Notes: a model not told the origin generated them from the letters alone. A stretch of DNA of 64,000 nt from an uncultured bacterium (GCA_964553045.1 CAZKJG010000003.1:81829-145828); one strand, 5' to 3'; positions 35,432-45,082 are shown, numbered from the stretch's first letter. Numbers and translations are program-made.

Positions 35432-37048
35432 TCAGCGGTCTCCGATCCGCTCCAGGAAACGCCTGGTGCCGGGATCGGAGAGGTCCGGATAGAGGGTCTT
35501 CTCCCCCGTATAGGTGACCTGTCCGGGTCCGCCGCCCTTCATCCTCCGTACACGCTGCACCTCGGTCCAGTCCACCGGAACGATGGAGCTGCCGGATCCG
35601 CGGCTGTGGTTGGCGGCTATGGAGGCCGCCTGCATCAGTGCCCTCGCCGACGGATTGTCGCCCCGACCCGCGCGCTTTATGAGAACGTGCGCTCCGGCCA
35701 GTCCCCGGGCGTGAAGCCAGATGTCACCCCGCCTGCCCAGCCCGAAGGTGACCCTGTCGTTCTCCCTGGCGCTGCGTCCTACCACGCACCTCCATCCGCC
35801 GGAGAGCCTGTATTCCGGGGGGGCGCTGGCGCCCTCACCGCCCTTGGCCCTCCTTCGGGCGGCGAGCCGCCTCTCCAGCTCGCGCCTGTCCAGCTCCGGC
35901 GCCTTCGCGGCCATCCCCTTCAGCTCCTCCAGCCTGCGACTGGCCTTCCTCCGGGAGGTCTGGAGGCTCTTCTTCTCCCTGGCGCAGCGACGTGCCTTTC
36001 GGAAGTAGCGCTGTGCGTTGGAGACGGCGTCCCTGGACCTGGAGAGGGGTATCCTGGTCCTGCCTCCCTCCCAGTCGTCCAGCATCACGCTGCCGCTGCC
36101 CTTCTCCACTCGCTTCACGTTGGCCAGCAGCAGCTCGCCCCAGTGCCGGTACTCCTGGGGAGTGGGCATCTCCGACCGCGCCTCCTCCAGGTTCTCGAGT
36201 CTGCGGCGCAGGGACGACATCTCCCGGCGGATGGAGCGCAGATAGTCCTCCAGGGCGCCGCGGCGCACCGTCCGTCCGGCCCGGTCTTCGCCCGGGGCCA
36301 GGAGGTCGTCCAGCGGTTCCCCGGGTCCCAGGGGAACCGGCAGCGGACCGTCCGGTCCGGACCAGGGACGGAAGTCCCCCGAAAGCAGCCTGTCCTCCAG
36401 GCTGCAGATCACCTCGATGGGCTTCCGGCCGGAGGATTCCGCCTCCCGCAGGATTGCGCCGGCGGTGCAGGGCCCCACCCCTTCCAGCCGGGCGTAGATG
36501 TCGCTCTCCCGGGGACGGTCCGGAAGGCTCACGCCCCCCTCCCCTTTGCACCATTCTCCCGGCGGAAGGCCGGATGGAGGCGGGGGGCGGTATGTGGAGC
36601 CGGGAACCAGGGTGCGATAGCGGGACCGCTGCCCGTCGACCCGGCGGGTAACGGCCAGGACCCTGTCATCGGCGTCCCGCACCAGAATCAGGTTGGCGTT
36701 CCTTCCGGTGGCCTCGAACACCAGTCGCACCCGGCCGGTGGAGTAGGGGTCGGCGGACTCCAGCTCCAGGACGATTACCCTGTCCGCCCCCTGCTGACGA
36801 ACGGCCGTGACCTCGGCGCCCTTCAGGTGATCGGCCCAGGCGGGCGATTCCGGCTCGGCCATCTCGTGGGCCTCGTTGCTCCACCAGACGCCGGGCCGGT
36901 CCGGCCTTGCGGACAGGAAAAGCGAGCCCCGGGGAAAGAGGAGGGTCAGGCCGTCCCGTATCACGACTCCGACCTCGCGGACCGCAAGACCCTTCAGCAG
37001 GCTGCGGAGCTCGGGCACCAGAGCGCAGAAAAAAACGCCCTCCAGCAC
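35432..37048 (-). CDS. rqcH: NFACT-family ribosome quality control factor (RqcH/FbpA)
   Basis: DRVIVL, NLILV, NAQRYFRKARR, VGRSARENDRVT, WLHARGLAGAHV. Confidence 0.88.
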   Translation of the reverse strand: MLEGVFFCALVPELRSLLKGLAVREVGVVIRDGLTLLFPRGSLFLSARPDRPGVWWSNEAHEMAEPESPAWADHLKGAEVTAVRQQGADRVIVLELESADPYSTGRVRLVFEATGRNANLILVRDADDRVLAVTRRVDGQRSRYRTLVPGSTYRPPPPSGLPPGEWCKGEGGVSLPDRPRESDIYARLEGVGPCTAGAILREAESSGRKPIEVICSLEDRLLSGDFRPWSGPDGPLPVPLGPGEPLDDLLAPGEDRAGRTVRRGALEDYLRSIRREMSSLRRRLENLEEARSEMPTPQEYRHWGELLLANVKRVEKGSGSVMLDDWEGGRTRIPLSRSRDAVSNAQRYFRKARRCAREKKSLQTSRRKASRRLEELKGMAAKAPELDRRELERRLAARRRAKGGEGASAPPEYRLSGGWRCVVGRSARENDRVTFGLGRRGDIWLHARGLAGAHVLIKRAGRGDNPSARALMQAASIAANHSRGSGSSIVPVDWTEVQRVRRMKGGGPGQVTYTGEKTLYPDLSDPGTRRFLERIGDR

Positions 37049-37224
37049 GGCATTACCTCCCGTGTGCGGGACGACATTGCGACGACCTGGATATATAATA
37101 CCCGACCGTGGCCCGGCGGGAGCAGGCGAACCCCTCCCCGGTCGAAGGCCACGGGAGCCGCCGCCTGGAACCCGGTGCTGGAGTGCCCGCGAGCCACATC
37201 CGTAAACGGTTTGGGGAGAAGATA

Positions 37225-38106
37225 ATGCAATCCATGACTGGTTTCGGTTCCGCCACCTGCGAGGTGAACGGTTTCTCGCTTTCGGTCGAGATCCGCTCCG
37301 TTAACGGCAAGGGGCTCCGGCTCTCCCTTCGAATGGACGACGCCCTCTCGACCGCCGAAAACGAGGCCGCCCTTCGAAAGGTGGTTTCCGACTCCGTCTC
37401 CCGCGGCAGGGTCACCCTCTCCGCCAGGCTGAAGCCGGCTTCGGCAGGGAGTGCGGCCGTGGTGGACTCCGATCAGGCCGAAAGGTACCTGGAGGCCGCC
37501 CGGGAGCTGGCGCGGCGATTCGGACTGGAGACCGGGGTGACCGTCGCCCATCTGCTGGCCATGCCCGGCGTGCTGGGCCCGCCGGATCCGACCCGGAGCG
37601 ATCCGGAAGAGCTCACCGGGAGGCTCCTGTCCTGCGCGGAGACCGCCATGGAGGGTTTCCTGGAGTCCAGGGCAAGGGAGGGCGCCAACCTGGCCGGTGC
37701 GATGGCGGACAGGGTTCGAAGCATCGCATCCTCGGCCGAATCGGTCATGGAGGACCAGGAGGAGCGGGTGGCCAGACGCTTTCGGGACCTCAAGGAGAGG
37801 GTGGCGAGGCTTCTCGAATCCCCGCCGGAGGACGAGTCCCGCCTCTACCAGGAGCTGGCCCTGCTGGCCGACCGGGTTGACGTGACGGAGGAGCACCAGC
37901 GCCTCCGCAGCCATGCGGAGACGGCCCTGGAAATGCTGGAGTCCGGGAAGTCCCAGGGCAGGAAGCTGGGGTTCATATTCCAGGAGATGCACAGGGAGCT
38001 GAACACGATGGGCTCCAAGGTGGACGACTCCGAAGCCCAGTTGCAGGTTGTTCAGATGAAAAACGATCTGGCAGCGCTTAGGGAGCAGGTTGCGAACCTC
38101 GAGTAG
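37225..38106 (+). CDS. yicC: YicC/YloC-family endoribonuclease
   Basis: MQSMTGFG, EIRSVNGK, DVTEEHQRL, GRKLGFIFQEMHRELNTMGSK, EQVANLE. Confidence 0.93.
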   Translation: MQSMTGFGSATCEVNGFSLSVEIRSVNGKGLRLSLRMDDALSTAENEAALRKVVSDSVSRGRVTLSARLKPASAGSAAVVDSDQAERYLEAARELARRFGLETGVTVAHLLAMPGVLGPPDPTRSDPEELTGRLLSCAETAMEGFLESRAREGANLAGAMADRVRSIASSAESVMEDQEERVARRFRDLKERVARLLESPPEDESRLYQELALLADRVDVTEEHQRLRSHAETALEMLESGKSQGRKLGFIFQEMHRELNTMGSKVDDSEAQLQVVQMKNDLAALREQVANLE

Positions 38107-39379
38107 CTACGGAAGACTGATAGTTGTGGCCGGGCCTTCCGGCGCCGGCAAGACGACCCTTGCCCGGCATCTGGTGGATACATTTGAGGACGCCCGGTTC
38201 TCCGTGTCCACCACCACCCGCCAGCCCCGCGGAGACGAGCGGCAGGGCCGGGACTACGACTTCGTGGACGGGGAGGAGTTCCGAAGCAGGGTAGAGGGGG
38301 ATTTCTTCCTGGAGTGGGCCGAGGTCCATGGAAGTCTCTACGGGACCGGCCGCCAGTGGGTCCGCCGGACGACTTCCTCCGGAAGCAGCGTGGTGCTGGA
38401 CATAGACGTCCAGGGCGCCATGCAGGTCAGGCAGCGGTGGCCGGGGGCCGTTCTGGTCTTCGTCCTCCCCCCTTCCATGGACGAGCTGCGCCGCAGGCTC
38501 AGCGGCAGGGGGACGGACGATCCCGGCACGGTGGAAAGGCGAATGGAGGCCGCGGCCAGGGAGGTGCGCTGGCTGGGAGCTTTCGACTACTTCGTCCTCA
38601 ACGGCCGGAGGGAGGACGCGCTGCGGCGCATCGAGGACATATACCTGTCCACTGTCTCGGGCCTGCGCTGGTCCCCCTATCCGGGTCAGGCGCTGGAGTA
38701 CCACGGTTCCATGGAGGGCCGGGACCACTGGCGGGGCGGGCGCGTTGTGGTCACAGCCGGGCCGACCCGGGAACCGCTGGACTCCGTGAGGTTCATATCC
38801 AACCGCTCCAGCGGCCTCATGGGCTGCATGCTCTGTGCCGCCCTTCGGGACGCCGGTGCCACGGTGACCCTGGTTGCCGGCCCCCTGAGGGTAAGGCCTC
38901 CCGCCGGAGTGAACCTGGTCTCCGTCGAGACCGCTCGGGAAATGGGTGAGGCCCTGCGGGAGCACCTGCCGGGGGCCGACCTGCTCGCGATGGCGGCCGC
39001 CGTATCGGACTTCCGGCCGGCGGAGCGGACGCCGGGCAAGATGGACCGGCGGACCGGAGCCGCCAGCCTGATGCTGGACGCCAATCCCGACCTGCTGGCC
39101 ACCCTGGGCGCCGACTGTCCGGTGCTGGCCTTCGCCCTGGAGATGGGCGAGGAAAGCGAGGAGAGGGCCCGGGAGAAGATGCGTAGAAAGGGGGCTTTCG
39201 CGATCTTCCTCAACCGGGGCGACGAGGCCGGTGTGGGCATGGAGAGCCCGGCCAACGCCGGCGTTCTGCTGGGCTGCGACGGAGGTAGGCTGGAGGTGCC
39301 CCGCGGCTCGAAGCGGTACGTGGCGGAGATGATCACGGCAGGCCTCGGCCGCTGGCTGGGGGAAGCGGGAGATGACTGA
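38090..39379 (+). CDS. gmk: Fusion of guanylate kinase and phosphopantothenoylcysteine synthetase (CoaB) domain
   Basis: N-half GPSGAGKT, STTTRQPR, LEWAEVHGSLYGT, LDIDVQGA. C-half VTAGPTREPLDSVRFISNRSSG, AAAVSDFRP, NPDLL. One frame, no stop between. Confidence 0.9.
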   Translation: MRTSSSYGRLIVVAGPSGAGKTTLARHLVDTFEDARFSVSTTTRQPRGDERQGRDYDFVDGEEFRSRVEGDFFLEWAEVHGSLYGTGRQWVRRTTSSGSSVVLDIDVQGAMQVRQRWPGAVLVFVLPPSMDELRRRLSGRGTDDPGTVERRMEAAAREVRWLGAFDYFVLNGRREDALRRIEDIYLSTVSGLRWSPYPGQALEYHGSMEGRDHWRGGRVVVTAGPTREPLDSVRFISNRSSGLMGCMLCAALRDAGATVTLVAGPLRVRPPAGVNLVSVETAREMGEALREHLPGADLLAMAAAVSDFRPAERTPGKMDRRTGAASLMLDANPDLLATLGADCPVLAFALEMGEESEERAREKMRRKGAFAIFLNRGDEAGVGMESPANAGVLLGCDGGRLEVPRGSKRYVAEMITAGLGRWLGEAGDD

Positions 39380-40106
39380 GGAAAGTGGAAGGCGGGATCC
39401 GGTATGGCGGGCGGCAGCCAGCTTCGGGCTTGACCGCATATACCTGCCGCAGGGTTGGCTGGAGAACAGAGTGAGCGGACGGCCGGATGGAAACGGAGCT
39501 CCGGAGGAGAGGGTGGAGAGCGCGGAGACAGTGAGGAAGAGGCTGGCCCGGCTTCGCGAGGAGATCGGCGACTGCAGAAGGTGCCGTCTGGGCGAGACCA
39601 GGAACAGGCTGGTCTTCGGCGACGGCAACCCGGCCTCCGGCATCGTGCTGGTGGGAGAGGGCCCGGGGGCCAACGAGGACCGGACCGGGAAGCCCTTCGT
39701 GGGAAAGGCCGGAAAGCTCCTTGACAGAATACTGGCCTCCATAGACCTCGACCGCAGCACCGTCTTCATCACCAACATCGTCAAGTGCCGGCCGCCGCGG
39801 AACAGGGCACCCAGGGGCGACGAGGTGACCGCCTGCCTCTGGATGCTGGAGGAGCAGATAAGGATCATGAGACCCGGCGTTATGCTCGCCCTGGGAGCTT
39901 CCGCCGCCAGGACGCTCACCGGAAGGCGGGAGGGCATCGGTGTGCTCAGGGGCAGCATGCATACCTATATGGACGTGCCCCTGATGGCCACCTACCACCC
40001 GGCGGCCCTGCTGCGTTCGCCGGCCCTCAAGAGGCCGGTCTGGGACGACGTCAGGGAACTTCGCTGCTTTCTGGACGAACACGGGCTTCCCAGAGAGGAC
40101 GGGTAG
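39372..40106 (+). CDS. Uracil-DNA glycosylase family 4 (Fe-S)
   Basis: CRRCRL, GEGPG, PFVGKAG, NIVKCRPP, TYHPAALL. Confidence 0.93.
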   Translation: MTEESGRRDPVWRAAASFGLDRIYLPQGWLENRVSGRPDGNGAPEERVESAETVRKRLARLREEIGDCRRCRLGETRNRLVFGDGNPASGIVLVGEGPGANEDRTGKPFVGKAGKLLDRILASIDLDRSTVFITNIVKCRPPRNRAPRGDEVTACLWMLEEQIRIMRPGVMLALGASAARTLTGRREGIGVLRGSMHTYMDVPLMATYHPAALLRSPALKRPVWDDVRELRCFLDEHGLPREDG

Positions 40107-40108
40107 GC

Positions 40109-41464
40109 GTGGAAGAGCTCAAGGGTTACGTACCACCCAGCAACGTGGAGGCGGAGCGCTCCGTTCTGGGCTCTATACTGCTCGACCAGGAGATCGCCCT
40201 GGAGGCGTTCGCCAGGCTGCACTACTCCGATTTCTACGACCGCAGGCACACGTTCATCTACCAGGCCTGCCGGGAGCTGGACTCCAGGAACTCGGCCATC
40301 GACCTGGTAACGGTGTGCGAGGAGCTGGCCGACAGGAAATGGCTGGGGGAGTGCGGGGGCGAGGAGTACGTGGCCGATCTCACCGAGGACATTCCCATAC
40401 TGAGCAACGTGATAGAGCACATAAGAATCGTCCGCAGCAAATCCATGCTCCGCAGACTGCTGAAGACCTGCCAGGACACCATTCGCGAGGTGATCCAGGG
40501 CGGAGAGGACACCGCGGGTCTGATAGACAGGACCGAGAAGCGGATATTCGAGATCTCGGCCCAGCGGACCGAGAGGGACTTCGTCCCCCTCTCCGAGCTG
40601 GTGGGGGAGAGCCTGGCGGAGCTGGAGAAGCTCCGGGGGGCGGTGGACTGCGTAACCGGGATCTCCACCGGCTTCGACGAGCTGGACCGGAAGACCACCG
40701 GCTTCCACCCGGGCGAGCTCATCGTGGTGGCGGCCAGGCCCTCCGTGGGCAAGACCACGCTGGCGCTGAACATGGCAGAGCACATCGCCACCCATTCCGA
40801 CAAGGCGGTGGGCTTCTTCAGCCTGGAGATGGCGGACCAGCAGCTCAGCAACCGCCTGGTCTGCGCCAACGCCGGTGTGGGGATGCAGGCCATTATGAGC
40901 CCCAACCTCTCGGACAAGCACGTCCGGGAGCTGCAGCACGCGGCCGACAGGCTGTCGCGGCTTCCCATGTACATAGAGGACACCGCCAGCATCGGGCCCA
41001 TGGAGCTGCGGGCCAAGTCCCGGAGGCTGGCCAAGCACGAGGAGCTGGGAGCGGTGTTCGTGGACTACCTTCAGCTGATGCATTCCGAGGACCGGGTTGA
41101 GAACCGCCAGCAGGAGATCTCCCAGATATCCGGTTCCCTCAAGGCTCTGGCCAAGGAGCTGAACCTGCCCGTCATAGCCCTGTCCCAGCTCAGCCGCAAA
41201 GCGGTGAGCCGGGGAGGCCCGCCCAAGCTGAGCGACCTCCGGGAGAGCGGGGCGATAGAGCAGGACGCCGATGTCGTCCTCTTCCTCCACGACCGCTCCC
41301 ATAACGAGGAGGAGACGGAGATACAGGCCATCGACGAGATGTACCGCGAGATCAAGCTCATCATCGGCAAGCAGCGAAACGGGCCCCGGGGCGTGATAGA
41401 CCTGGTCTTCGACACGGCGATATCCAGGTTCTTCCCCAAGGCCATGGAAGGTATGGAGCCCTGA
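40109..41464 (+). CDS. dnaB: Replicative DNA helicase
   Basis: EAERSVLG, ARPSVGKT, FSLEM, DYLQLM, LSQLSR, SDLRESGAIEQDAD, KQRNGP; GTG start 40109. Confidence 0.97.
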   Translation: MEELKGYVPPSNVEAERSVLGSILLDQEIALEAFARLHYSDFYDRRHTFIYQACRELDSRNSAIDLVTVCEELADRKWLGECGGEEYVADLTEDIPILSNVIEHIRIVRSKSMLRRLLKTCQDTIREVIQGGEDTAGLIDRTEKRIFEISAQRTERDFVPLSELVGESLAELEKLRGAVDCVTGISTGFDELDRKTTGFHPGELIVVAARPSVGKTTLALNMAEHIATHSDKAVGFFSLEMADQQLSNRLVCANAGVGMQAIMSPNLSDKHVRELQHAADRLSRLPMYIEDTASIGPMELRAKSRRLAKHEELGAVFVDYLQLMHSEDRVENRQQEISQISGSLKALAKELNLPVIALSQLSRKAVSRGGPPKLSDLRESGAIEQDADVVLFLHDRSHNEEETEIQAIDEMYREIKLIIGKQRNGPRGVIDLVFDTAISRFFPKAMEGMEP

Positions 41465-43891: not shown

Positions 43892-45082
43892 ATGGACCGG
43901 CCCGGCCGGGATGCCTCGAAGGCCGTCTGGGGCGCAGTCATAGTCGCCGCCGGCGACGGAAGCCGCTACGGCGGCCGCGTTCCCAAGCAGTTCCTTCCCC
44001 TGGACGGAGTTCCGCTCGTGGAGCACAGCCTCAGAACGGTGCTCTCCATGGAGCGGGTGAGGCACACCGTGCTGGTAGTGCCCGAGGAGGGGGACTGGCG
44101 GAGCAGCTGGACGCCGCCGCAGGCCGGGGGGTTCGTGATCCGTCCCGGGGGCAGCGTGCGAAGCCAATCGGTTCTTGCCGGACTCGACGCCCTGGAAGAC
44201 GCAACCCACGTCGCGGTCCACGACGCGGCCAGGCCCCTGGCCTCCGCCGCGCTCTTCCACCGGGTCATGGACGCAGCCGAGTCGGGGGGCGCGGCGGTGC
44301 CTGTATACCCGGTCAGCAGCACGGTGAAGAGGGTATCGGCCGACGGCGCCACCGTGGAGGGCACGGTGGATCGGTCCCTGCTGGGCCTGAGCCAGACGCC
44401 GCAGGCCGCGGAGCTGGACGTTCTGCAGCGGGCCCTTCGCGCCCATCCCGCCAGCACCGACGAGGCAGCCGCCCTGGAGCGCGCGGGCGTCGAGGTGACC
44501 GCCGTGGATGGGGAGCGGGAGAACATCAAGCTGACCCGCCCAGGCGACATGCGCCTGCTGGAGGCCTTCCTGCCCCGGGTGGAGACCGCTCTGGGAACCG
44601 GCCTCGACTTCCATCCCCTGGTGGAGGGCAGGCCCATGGTGGTGTGCGGAATCCGCTTCGACGAACCGGTGGGGCCCTCCGGCCACTCCGACGGCGACCC
44701 CGCGATGCACGCGGCCGCAGACGCCGTCCTCTCCGCCGCCAGGCTGGGCGACATAGGCGAGTTCTTCCCTGCCGGAGACCCGAAGTGGAAGGGGGCCGAC
44801 AGCCGCACGCTGCTGCGCCGGACGGCCGACGCTGCCGCCCGGGAAGGCTGGAGGGTGCTGAGCGCCGACCTGACACTCATCGGGAGCAGACCCCGGGTGC
44901 TGGAATCCAGGGAGCATATGATGGACGCTCTGTCCGAGGCGCTGGGCTGTCGCCGACGCCAGGTCTGGGTGAAGGGCACCACCACCAACGGCCTGGGACC
45001 CCTGGGGCGGGGGGAAGGCATTGGTGCCATGGCCGTGGTGAGACTGGTCCGCAGGACTCCCAAGGGCGGCGCGGTCCCTTGA
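43892..45082 (+). CDS. ispDF: Bifunctional IspD/IspF
   Basis: AAGDGSRYGG..PKQF, HDAARP, QTPQ, NIKLT (IspD); GLDFH, GHSDGD, KGTTT (IspF). Confidence 0.92.
   Translation: MDRPGRDASKAVWGAVIVAAGDGSRYGGRVPKQFLPLDGVPLVEHSLRTVLSMERVRHTVLVVPEEGDWRSSWTPPQAGGFVIRPGGSVRSQSVLAGLDALEDATHVAVHDAARPLASAALFHRVMDAAESGGAAVPVYPVSSTVKRVSADGATVEGTVDRSLLGLSQTPQAAELDVLQRALRAHPASTDEAAALERAGVEVTAVDGERENIKLTRPGDMRLLEAFLPRVETALGTGLDFHPLVEGRPMVVCGIRFDEPVGPSGHSDGDPAMHAAADAVLSAARLGDIGEFFPAGDPKWKGADSRTLLRRTADAAAREGWRVLSADLTLIGSRPRVLESREHMMDALSEALGCRRRQVWVKGTTTNGLGPLGRGEGIGAMAVVRLVRRTPKGGAVP

Follow-up and report, generated by a model that had tools for sequence, protein, structure and literature searches.

A guanylate kinase-CoaB fusion fixed across an order of Fermentibacteria, with coaC and rpoZ at separate loci

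What does it mean when guanylate kinase (Gmk) runs on, within a single reading frame, into CoaB (phosphopantothenate-cysteine ligase), with neither a CoaC domain nor rpoZ in sight? The question is raised by a locus in the window, i.e. the whole stretch of 64,000 nucleotides analysed here, which belongs to contig C3 of an uncultured bacterium (genome G000) whose order, with no cultured member, is that of the Fermentibacteria going by the names of its homologs. The reading put forward, to which a probability of about 0.7 is given, is that of an old bifunctional housekeeping enzyme of Fermentibacteria, the two active sites of which would work independently on a shared dimer.

A sequence-only reading had seen Gmk motifs and a CoaB domain in one frame, and profile searches bear this out (Table 1). 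The start codon is a TTG inside the overlap with the end of yicC. The Gmk half scores 209.4 bits against TIGR03263 (cut-off 160.45) and 140 bits against PF00625 (cut-off 25.2; E 9e-41), and the CoaB half 176.8 bits against PF04127 (E 5e-52). Residues 212-416 match positions 182-388 of the 392 of TIGR00521, namely the C-terminal half of CoaBC only, with 141.7 bits, under the cut-off of 219.7, while the streptococcal-type CoaB profile TIGR02114 is not reached (48.9 vs. 217.2 bits) and the profile scan found no match to PF02441, the CoaC flavoprotein, in the fusion frame. The AF2 model of the monomer, built on a 119-row alignment, has a pLDDT of 92 and a pTM of 0.85; with Foldseek, its CoaB half superposes on E. 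coli CoaB 1u80 at an rmsd of 1.9 Å (TM 0.89, target-normalised) and its Gmk half on E. coli Gmk 1s96 at 1.6-1.9 Å. No solved structure with both Gmk and CoaB was found in the structure search.

Table 1. Coordinates of the fusion, its parts, its neighbours and the relocated partner genes (positions in the window unless a contig of genome G000 is given).
Feature	Position	Strand	Basis
gmk-coaB fusion gene, 429 aa	38090..39379	+	profile matches; AF2 model; full-length in 54/55 genomes
guanylate kinase domain, aa 8-185	38111..38644	+	TIGR03263 above cut-off; conserved residues; Foldseek
junction, aa 186-212	38645..38725	+	outgroup profile limits; helical in AF2 model
CoaB (phosphopantothenate-cysteine ligase) domain, aa 213-425	38726..39364	+	PF04127; kept E. 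coli residues; Foldseek 1u80
yicC/yloC endoribonuclease	37225..38106	+	TIGR00255 above cut-off; end overlaps fusion start
family 4 uracil-DNA glycosylase (udg)	39372..40106	+	TIGR00758; overlaps fusion stop
DnaB-like replicative helicase	40109..41464	+	name from recognised motifs
stand-alone CoaC, 183 aa	G000:C23:5340-5891		PF02441, 99 bits
RNA polymerase omega (rpoZ)	G000:C6:50859-51107		PF01192, 27.9 vs. 26 bits, marginal

Between the two halves, the linker of about 25 aa read at first does not hold, as aa 186-212 consist mostly of Gmk's own C-terminal helix and tail, followed by a short CoaBC hinge. The outgroup Gmk profile ends at about aa 186-195 of the fusions, the outgroup CoaBC profile starts at aa 208, and the Gmk tail has about the outside median length of 40 residues; since profile limits and tail length fit, the junction appears to be a complete Gmk joined straight to the CoaC-CoaB hinge. 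Its spacing is almost constant (51-53 aa among 15 homologs), with P198 and G210 conserved, together with W214 just after.

The fusion is no novelty of this genome: it is old, and fixed in the order as a whole. A union of two genome searches (35/35, then 19/20) recovered it at full length in 54 of the 55 genomes of the order, the exception being G046, with a match to aa 6-115 only, at a contig end; in each of the 35 loci of the first search, a single frame free of stops holds both domains. In 248 outside genomes, which are related at the domain level only, the host order seeming to be the sole part of its phylum in the genome set, no match among those listed covers both domains, 376 weaker ones (<138 bits) being unlisted. 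Regarding databases, an architecture of PF00625 and PF04127 with no PF02441 is found in every one of the best 120 homologs, which are annotated as guanylate kinase or hypothetical only and, where labelled by taxon, as Candidatus Fermentibacteria, Fermentibacteraceae, Aegiribacteria, Sabulitectum or FCB group. In a library of 50% representatives (1.84 billion sequences), 3 of the best 150 matches carry both domains, each about 50% identical to the query. With a query from outside, a search for long Gmk proteins returned 73 matches, of which 8 are Gmk+CoaB, 7 of these being already among the best 120 homologs and P0403 being 53% identical over its length; none of the 73 is a Gmk+CoaC fusion. The Gmk-CoaB fusion probably originated a single time, in the order's common ancestor. 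What is seen here is an old, unreported rearrangement of two well-known enzymes, not new chemistry: no description was found in the open-access papers searched, supplements, where annotation tables may stand, and subscription papers lying outside that search, and the terms 'pantothen', 'guanylate', 'fusion' and 'stringent' are absent from the main text of PMC5030696.

The genes expected in the operon are elsewhere. As the sequence-only reading had stated, neither a CoaC domain nor rpoZ is nearby, the sole matches of the genome to PF02441 and PF01192 lying on contigs C23 and C6, respectively. One PF02441 gene is found in each of 35/35 genomes; it matches TIGR00521 over positions 5-181 with 174 bits, vs. 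24 for UbiX and 31 for CypD, and keeps H71, PxMNxxMW and C154-G155 in 33-34 of 34 sequences, of which the His and the Cys are taken to be the catalytic and active-site residues of a decarboxylase. Of the stand-alone or non-orthologous decarboxylase once suggested, the first term is right, with a motif-complete CoaC, and the second unsupported, the match being of CoaBC type. This coaC stands in the order nadC-coaX-coaC-mtnA, with all four genes in 32 of 35 loci and coaX-coaC-mtnA in 34, the remaining loci being cut by contig ends; coaX encodes a type III pantothenate kinase, which acts one step ahead of CoaB. In G000, the operon (L001:4-3077, i.e. G000:C23:3852-6925) brings together genes of NAD, CoA and methionine salvage with overlapping stops and starts, and dnaK-like and dnaJ-like genes, named by motifs, lie 3' of it. 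Long stop-to-stop frames raised the idea of a CoaX-CoaC fusion, which was rejected, the two genes being in different frames in all 34 loci with both.

As for omega, one match per genome is found in 35/35 genomes, so that of the two fates proposed for this subunit, relocated or lost, only relocation stands. In all 30 loci fetched, rpoZ has an unannotated gene upstream and a PPIase/TPR protein on the other side. The upstream protein of G000 (L034:5262-6779, on C6; about 505 aa) has a hydrophobic N-terminal segment and a 449-aa part with no Pfam or NCBIfam match, and its C-terminal part is conserved directly 5' of rpoZ in 30/30 loci. Besides, CoaX, CoaC, CoaD, CoaE and Cmk are all present in the genome, the search of which found no second Gmk and no second CoaB, the fusion being the only one of each. 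CoA synthesis in Fermentibacteria is complete, with partner genes moved and none lost, and may be misread as incomplete because the names mention guanylate kinase only and both halves score under the CoaBC cut-off.

Around the fusion, relatives keep yicC upstream in 35/35 loci, udg downstream in 34/35 and dnaB next in 33/35, the one locus without udg ending at a contig end. A gene of the NFACT/RqcH family (window 35432-37048, minus strand) diverges from yicC at a place that most loci of the order share. A scan for promoters and terminators stayed at chance level, with one promoter-like site at 37071-37099 vs. 0.5 expected.

How did the fusion come about? Of 113 loci with a fused coaBC from outside the lineage, 46 have gmk at most 1.5 kb upstream of it, and omega lies between the two genes in 23 of the 28 candidate ORFs scanned, these candidates having been picked by motif from the gmk-coaBC loci and named loci. 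In Gemmatimonadota and Acidobacteriota the loci read yicC-gmk-..-coaBC-udg, dnaB coming next in the gemmatimonadotal L155; the yicC-gmk-rpoZ-coaBC order that had been called widely conserved is indeed widespread, with udg-dnaB beyond. The in-frame deletion proposed at first is half right: the fusion is placed exactly where removal of rpoZ and coaC predicts, but deletion alone falls short as an explanation, coaC and rpoZ being still present at two unconnected loci, and their relocation or re-acquisition, we infer, came before or with the loss of the segment. From an ancestral operon yicC-gmk-rpoZ-coaBC-udg-dnaB, coaC would have moved beside coaX and rpoZ beside the PPIase gene, and loss of the intervening segment would have set the end of gmk in frame with the CoaC-CoaB hinge.

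Phylogeny, computed with FastTree alone and with 14 lineage rows beside the outside ones (leaving aside L191, a duplicate, the frameshifted L156, L158 and L159, and low-scoring or short matches), gives one clade of the lineage per domain, with support 100, 99 and 85. Stem lengths are 0.66 for CoaC, 0.52 for CoaB and 0.17 for Gmk, and that the two separated halves evolved faster is in line with fission of a native CoaBC; alternatively, the stand-alone CoaC may have been re-acquired. The Gmk clade adjoins a Gemmatimonadales row (support 86). For CoaC and CoaB, neither a donor nor a supported sister emerged, profile scores being flat over about 150 outside CoaBCs and sister support being 8 and 78, respectively. 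Fusion with a neighbour in the gmk operon is not rare, since Gmk is also fused sporadically to YicC (16 of the 73 long Gmk proteins) and omega (5).

Regarding the catalytic state, the Gmk half carries the P-loop GPSGAGKT, SxTTRxxR, E50, Y56, E75, YGT, D104/D106 and the lid arginines, residues that are invariant or nearly so across 119-151 homologs: S40, R44, R47, E50, Y56, E75, Y84, D106, R136, R140 and R151 are invariant (119/119), K21 and D104 nearly so. With the P-loop, GMP-site and lid roles that we assume for these residues, the site looks like that of a canonical GMP kinase, converting GMP and ATP to GDP. In the CoaB half, the equivalents of E. coli R206, N210, A276, D279, K289, D309, E330, K341, K345, N353 and K385 are present in 120/120 fusions and that of F327 in 118/120; likewise kept in 120/120 are the equivalents of R207, N211, A280 and D281, which PMC7794376 assigns to the M. 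smegmatis CoaB active site together with a K-X-K-K loop contacting the CTP triphosphate. At that loop the fusions read K-x-x-R, with the first K invariant and the last R in 119/119; a K at the third position occurs in 20/119 fusions vs. 130/147 outside, and the R variant is also met outside the lineage (38/147). Other changes are K215 of SSGKMG, mostly L, G326, which is A or S, and F362, which is M; together with the loop, they speak against a site that is canonical throughout. PMC12985681 ties CTP selectivity to E. coli M257, I310 and helix alpha6. In the fusions, M257 is retained as M/L and I310 as I/L, and P308, D309 and F327 are found in most or all; the features of a CTP-type pocket are kept, and in these respects the site looks canonical.

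According to the favoured reading, the N-terminal domain would turn GMP and ATP into GDP and the C-terminal domain phosphopantothenate, CTP and cysteine into 4'-phosphopantothenoylcysteine, in a two-fold dimer where the Gmk dimer stacks on the CoaB dimer and Gmk takes CoaC's former N-terminal place, the two active sites being independent and free of channelling. The predicted homodimer scored 0.74 vs. 0.00 for the best control (among solved pairs 20 of 30, and among single chains 1 of 23, attain the dimer mark), with at least 93% contact agreement between runs and a pLDDT of at least 82. Its interface would involve CoaB strands 233-239 and 323-331 and the Gmk C-terminal helices 166-193. This pass may reflect memory of solved CoaB and Gmk oligomers; for the cross-domain contacts, no solved precedent was found among the Foldseek and structure matches. 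The Gmk and CoaB reactions share no substrate or product. The metabolic link of GDP and CoA synthesis claimed earlier lacks chemical support, there being no shared metabolite, a separate Cmk to recycle CMP and a CoaB pocket of CTP type; a possible link between Gmk and CoaB would be structural or allosteric.

Such a link is at the heart of the strongest alternative, judged unlikely, whereby CoaB, once parted from CoaC, was selected to rely on the Gmk dimer for its own dimerisation. The lid-hinge helix of Gmk (aa 159-164) would pack on aa 404-410 of CoaB in the other chain, and CoA synthesis would respond to guanine-nucleotide or energy state, or Gmk to CoA. The predicted dimer does place Gmk 159-164 against the other chain with low error (160/161-410, 163/164-407/409 and 163-247), and none of the 55 genomes showed a split fusion. 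G163, F165, E182 and P198, conserved in the fusion and not in outside Gmks, lie in the predicted interface, which holds 4 of 10 lineage-specific Gmk positions vs. about 19% of positions expected, a suggestive excess only. The top inter-domain pair by mutual information, 161-388, has both residues in that interface; however, the 13 predicted cross pairs show no excess of covariation at a Neff of 63, 2 of them ranking in the top 3% and 8 in the bottom half or close to the middle, and interface conservation is average (0.64 vs. 0.66). According to PMC7794376, the CoaB of M. smegmatis needs CoaC to dimerise and to work, whereas that of E. coli does both alone. Besides, at least 10 outside loci hold a bare CoaB frame of 212-249 aa, some of which may be sequence errors.

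The same alternative draws on the missing alarmone synthetase. None of 51 genomes of the order, the single-contig G027 among them, gave a match to the RelA/SpoT synthetase domain PF04607, vs. 15 of 20 outside, and the hydrolase domain PF13328 was matched in 3 of 45 genomes of the order, only in frames of 185-293 aa; going by these profiles, the lineage may have no (p)ppGpp stringent response. In other bacteria ppGpp acts on Gmk and omega, and a causal tie between missing ppGpp synthesis and the break-up of gmk-rpoZ is a matter of speculation. A doubtful variant, to be rated lower again than the alternative just described, holds that in such a (p)ppGpp-free lineage Gmk replaces CoaC as the oligomeric scaffold of CoaB, touching the partner chain's CoaB through its lid-hinge helix, and the guanine-nucleotide state directly gates CoA synthesis, or CoA gates GDP synthesis. 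Such gating, if true, would couple purine and CoA metabolism through a new type of regulation, and if the predicted cross-domain contact were regulatory, GTP supply would be coupled to CoA synthesis in bacteria with no detected stringent-response synthetase. PMC3153485 names the PVC superphylum and mainly intracellular bacteria as lacking RelA/SpoT-type enzymes.

A re-routing of nucleotides, in which CoaB uses GTP and the fused kinase recycles the GMP, or the kinase has shifted to CMP, would account for the domains staying together, and lineage-specific changes do occur near the CoaB nucleotide site (K-x-x-R, A or S for G326, and L for A329). Yet the Gmk signature residues are all invariant in what is the genome's only Gmk, a separate Cmk is present, and GTP use by CoaB or CMP recycling by the kinase is unlikely because the CTP-selectivity positions of PMC12985681 are kept; on balance this is very improbable. 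Slightly less probable still is the view that one half is vestigial, e.g. an inactive CoaB retained as structural appendage: the CoaB stem is long and the K-X-K-K motif altered, but K-x-x-R variants occur outside too, the catalytic residues of CoaB are invariant in 119-120 of 120 fusions, and a search for another CoaB found none in a genome with an otherwise complete pathway. Finally, mis-assembly or a gene-calling artefact, raised by the sequence-only reading as a danger at the junction, has a negligible chance and nothing found in its favour, the same junction with its fixed spacing recurring in 54 independent assemblies of relatives at 51-80% protein identity: the fusion is a genuine gene. 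A single Logan contig runs through the stretch with no difference and may be the source of this DNA, hence not independent; runs X2-X4 gave pieces, none of the listed contigs bridging the whole junction.

Compared with CoaBC/Dfp (E. coli 1u7u-1u80; M. smegmatis 6tgv), the old bifunctional enzyme favoured here is alike in CoaB fold, catalytic residues, predicted dimer interface and operon position before udg, but its N-terminal partner is Gmk instead of CoaC, with no CoaC dodecamer core in cis, and K-x-x-R replaces K-X-K-K. With bacterial Gmk (TIGR03263; E. coli 1s96/2an9) it shares motifs, fold, place after yicC and the C-terminal oligomerisation helix, whereas its C-terminal tail runs on into CoaB and its W161 and G163, on the helix before the FDY motif, are lineage-specific. 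In split CoaB and CoaC, be they streptococcal (TIGR02114/TIGR02113) or CoaBC-type pairs (L204-L219), the two are likewise on separate polypeptides; here CoaB is of CoaBC type and re-fused to Gmk, coaC is at a different locus, and the lineage CoaC groups with none of the split CoaCs at any supported node. In Verrucomicrobiota/Lentisphaerota (L152, L153), gmk-coaC loci also keep CoaC separate from CoaB. The PVC-group loci L150, L152 and L153, with a stand-alone coaC immediately after gmk and no coaB in the locus, are the mirror image of the split in the fusion lineage. YicC-Gmk and Gmk-omega fusions also join Gmk to an operon neighbour, mostly as single sequences, while Gmk-CoaB is fixed across an order. 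Cyanobacterial PanC-Cmk is another nucleoside monophosphate kinase fused to a ligase of the pantothenate/CoA pathway, with enzymes and folds different from those of Gmk-CoaB.

Clean markers common to the lineage are the gmk-coaB fusion, the nadC-coaX-coaC-mtnA operon and the relocated rpoZ. Besides, the fusion is a natural experiment on the reliance of CoaB on an N-terminal partner for dimerisation and on the channelling of its product to CoaC.

At 43892-45082 of the window (plus strand), 3' of radA and a PIN/TRAM-like gene, a frame resembles an IspD-IspF fusion by its motifs. Outside the order, CoaBC lies in stop-to-stop frames of 1027 aa in L215 (G192:C52) and 745 aa in L220 (G188:C21), which could be fusions as well, or no more than GC-rich open frames. 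Three proteins of 544-554 aa, namely P0184, P0397 and P0398, the last named Candidatus Sumerlaeia, combine Gmk with a sigma-54-type AAA+ activator/HTH region and are possibly nucleotide-sensing transcription factors.
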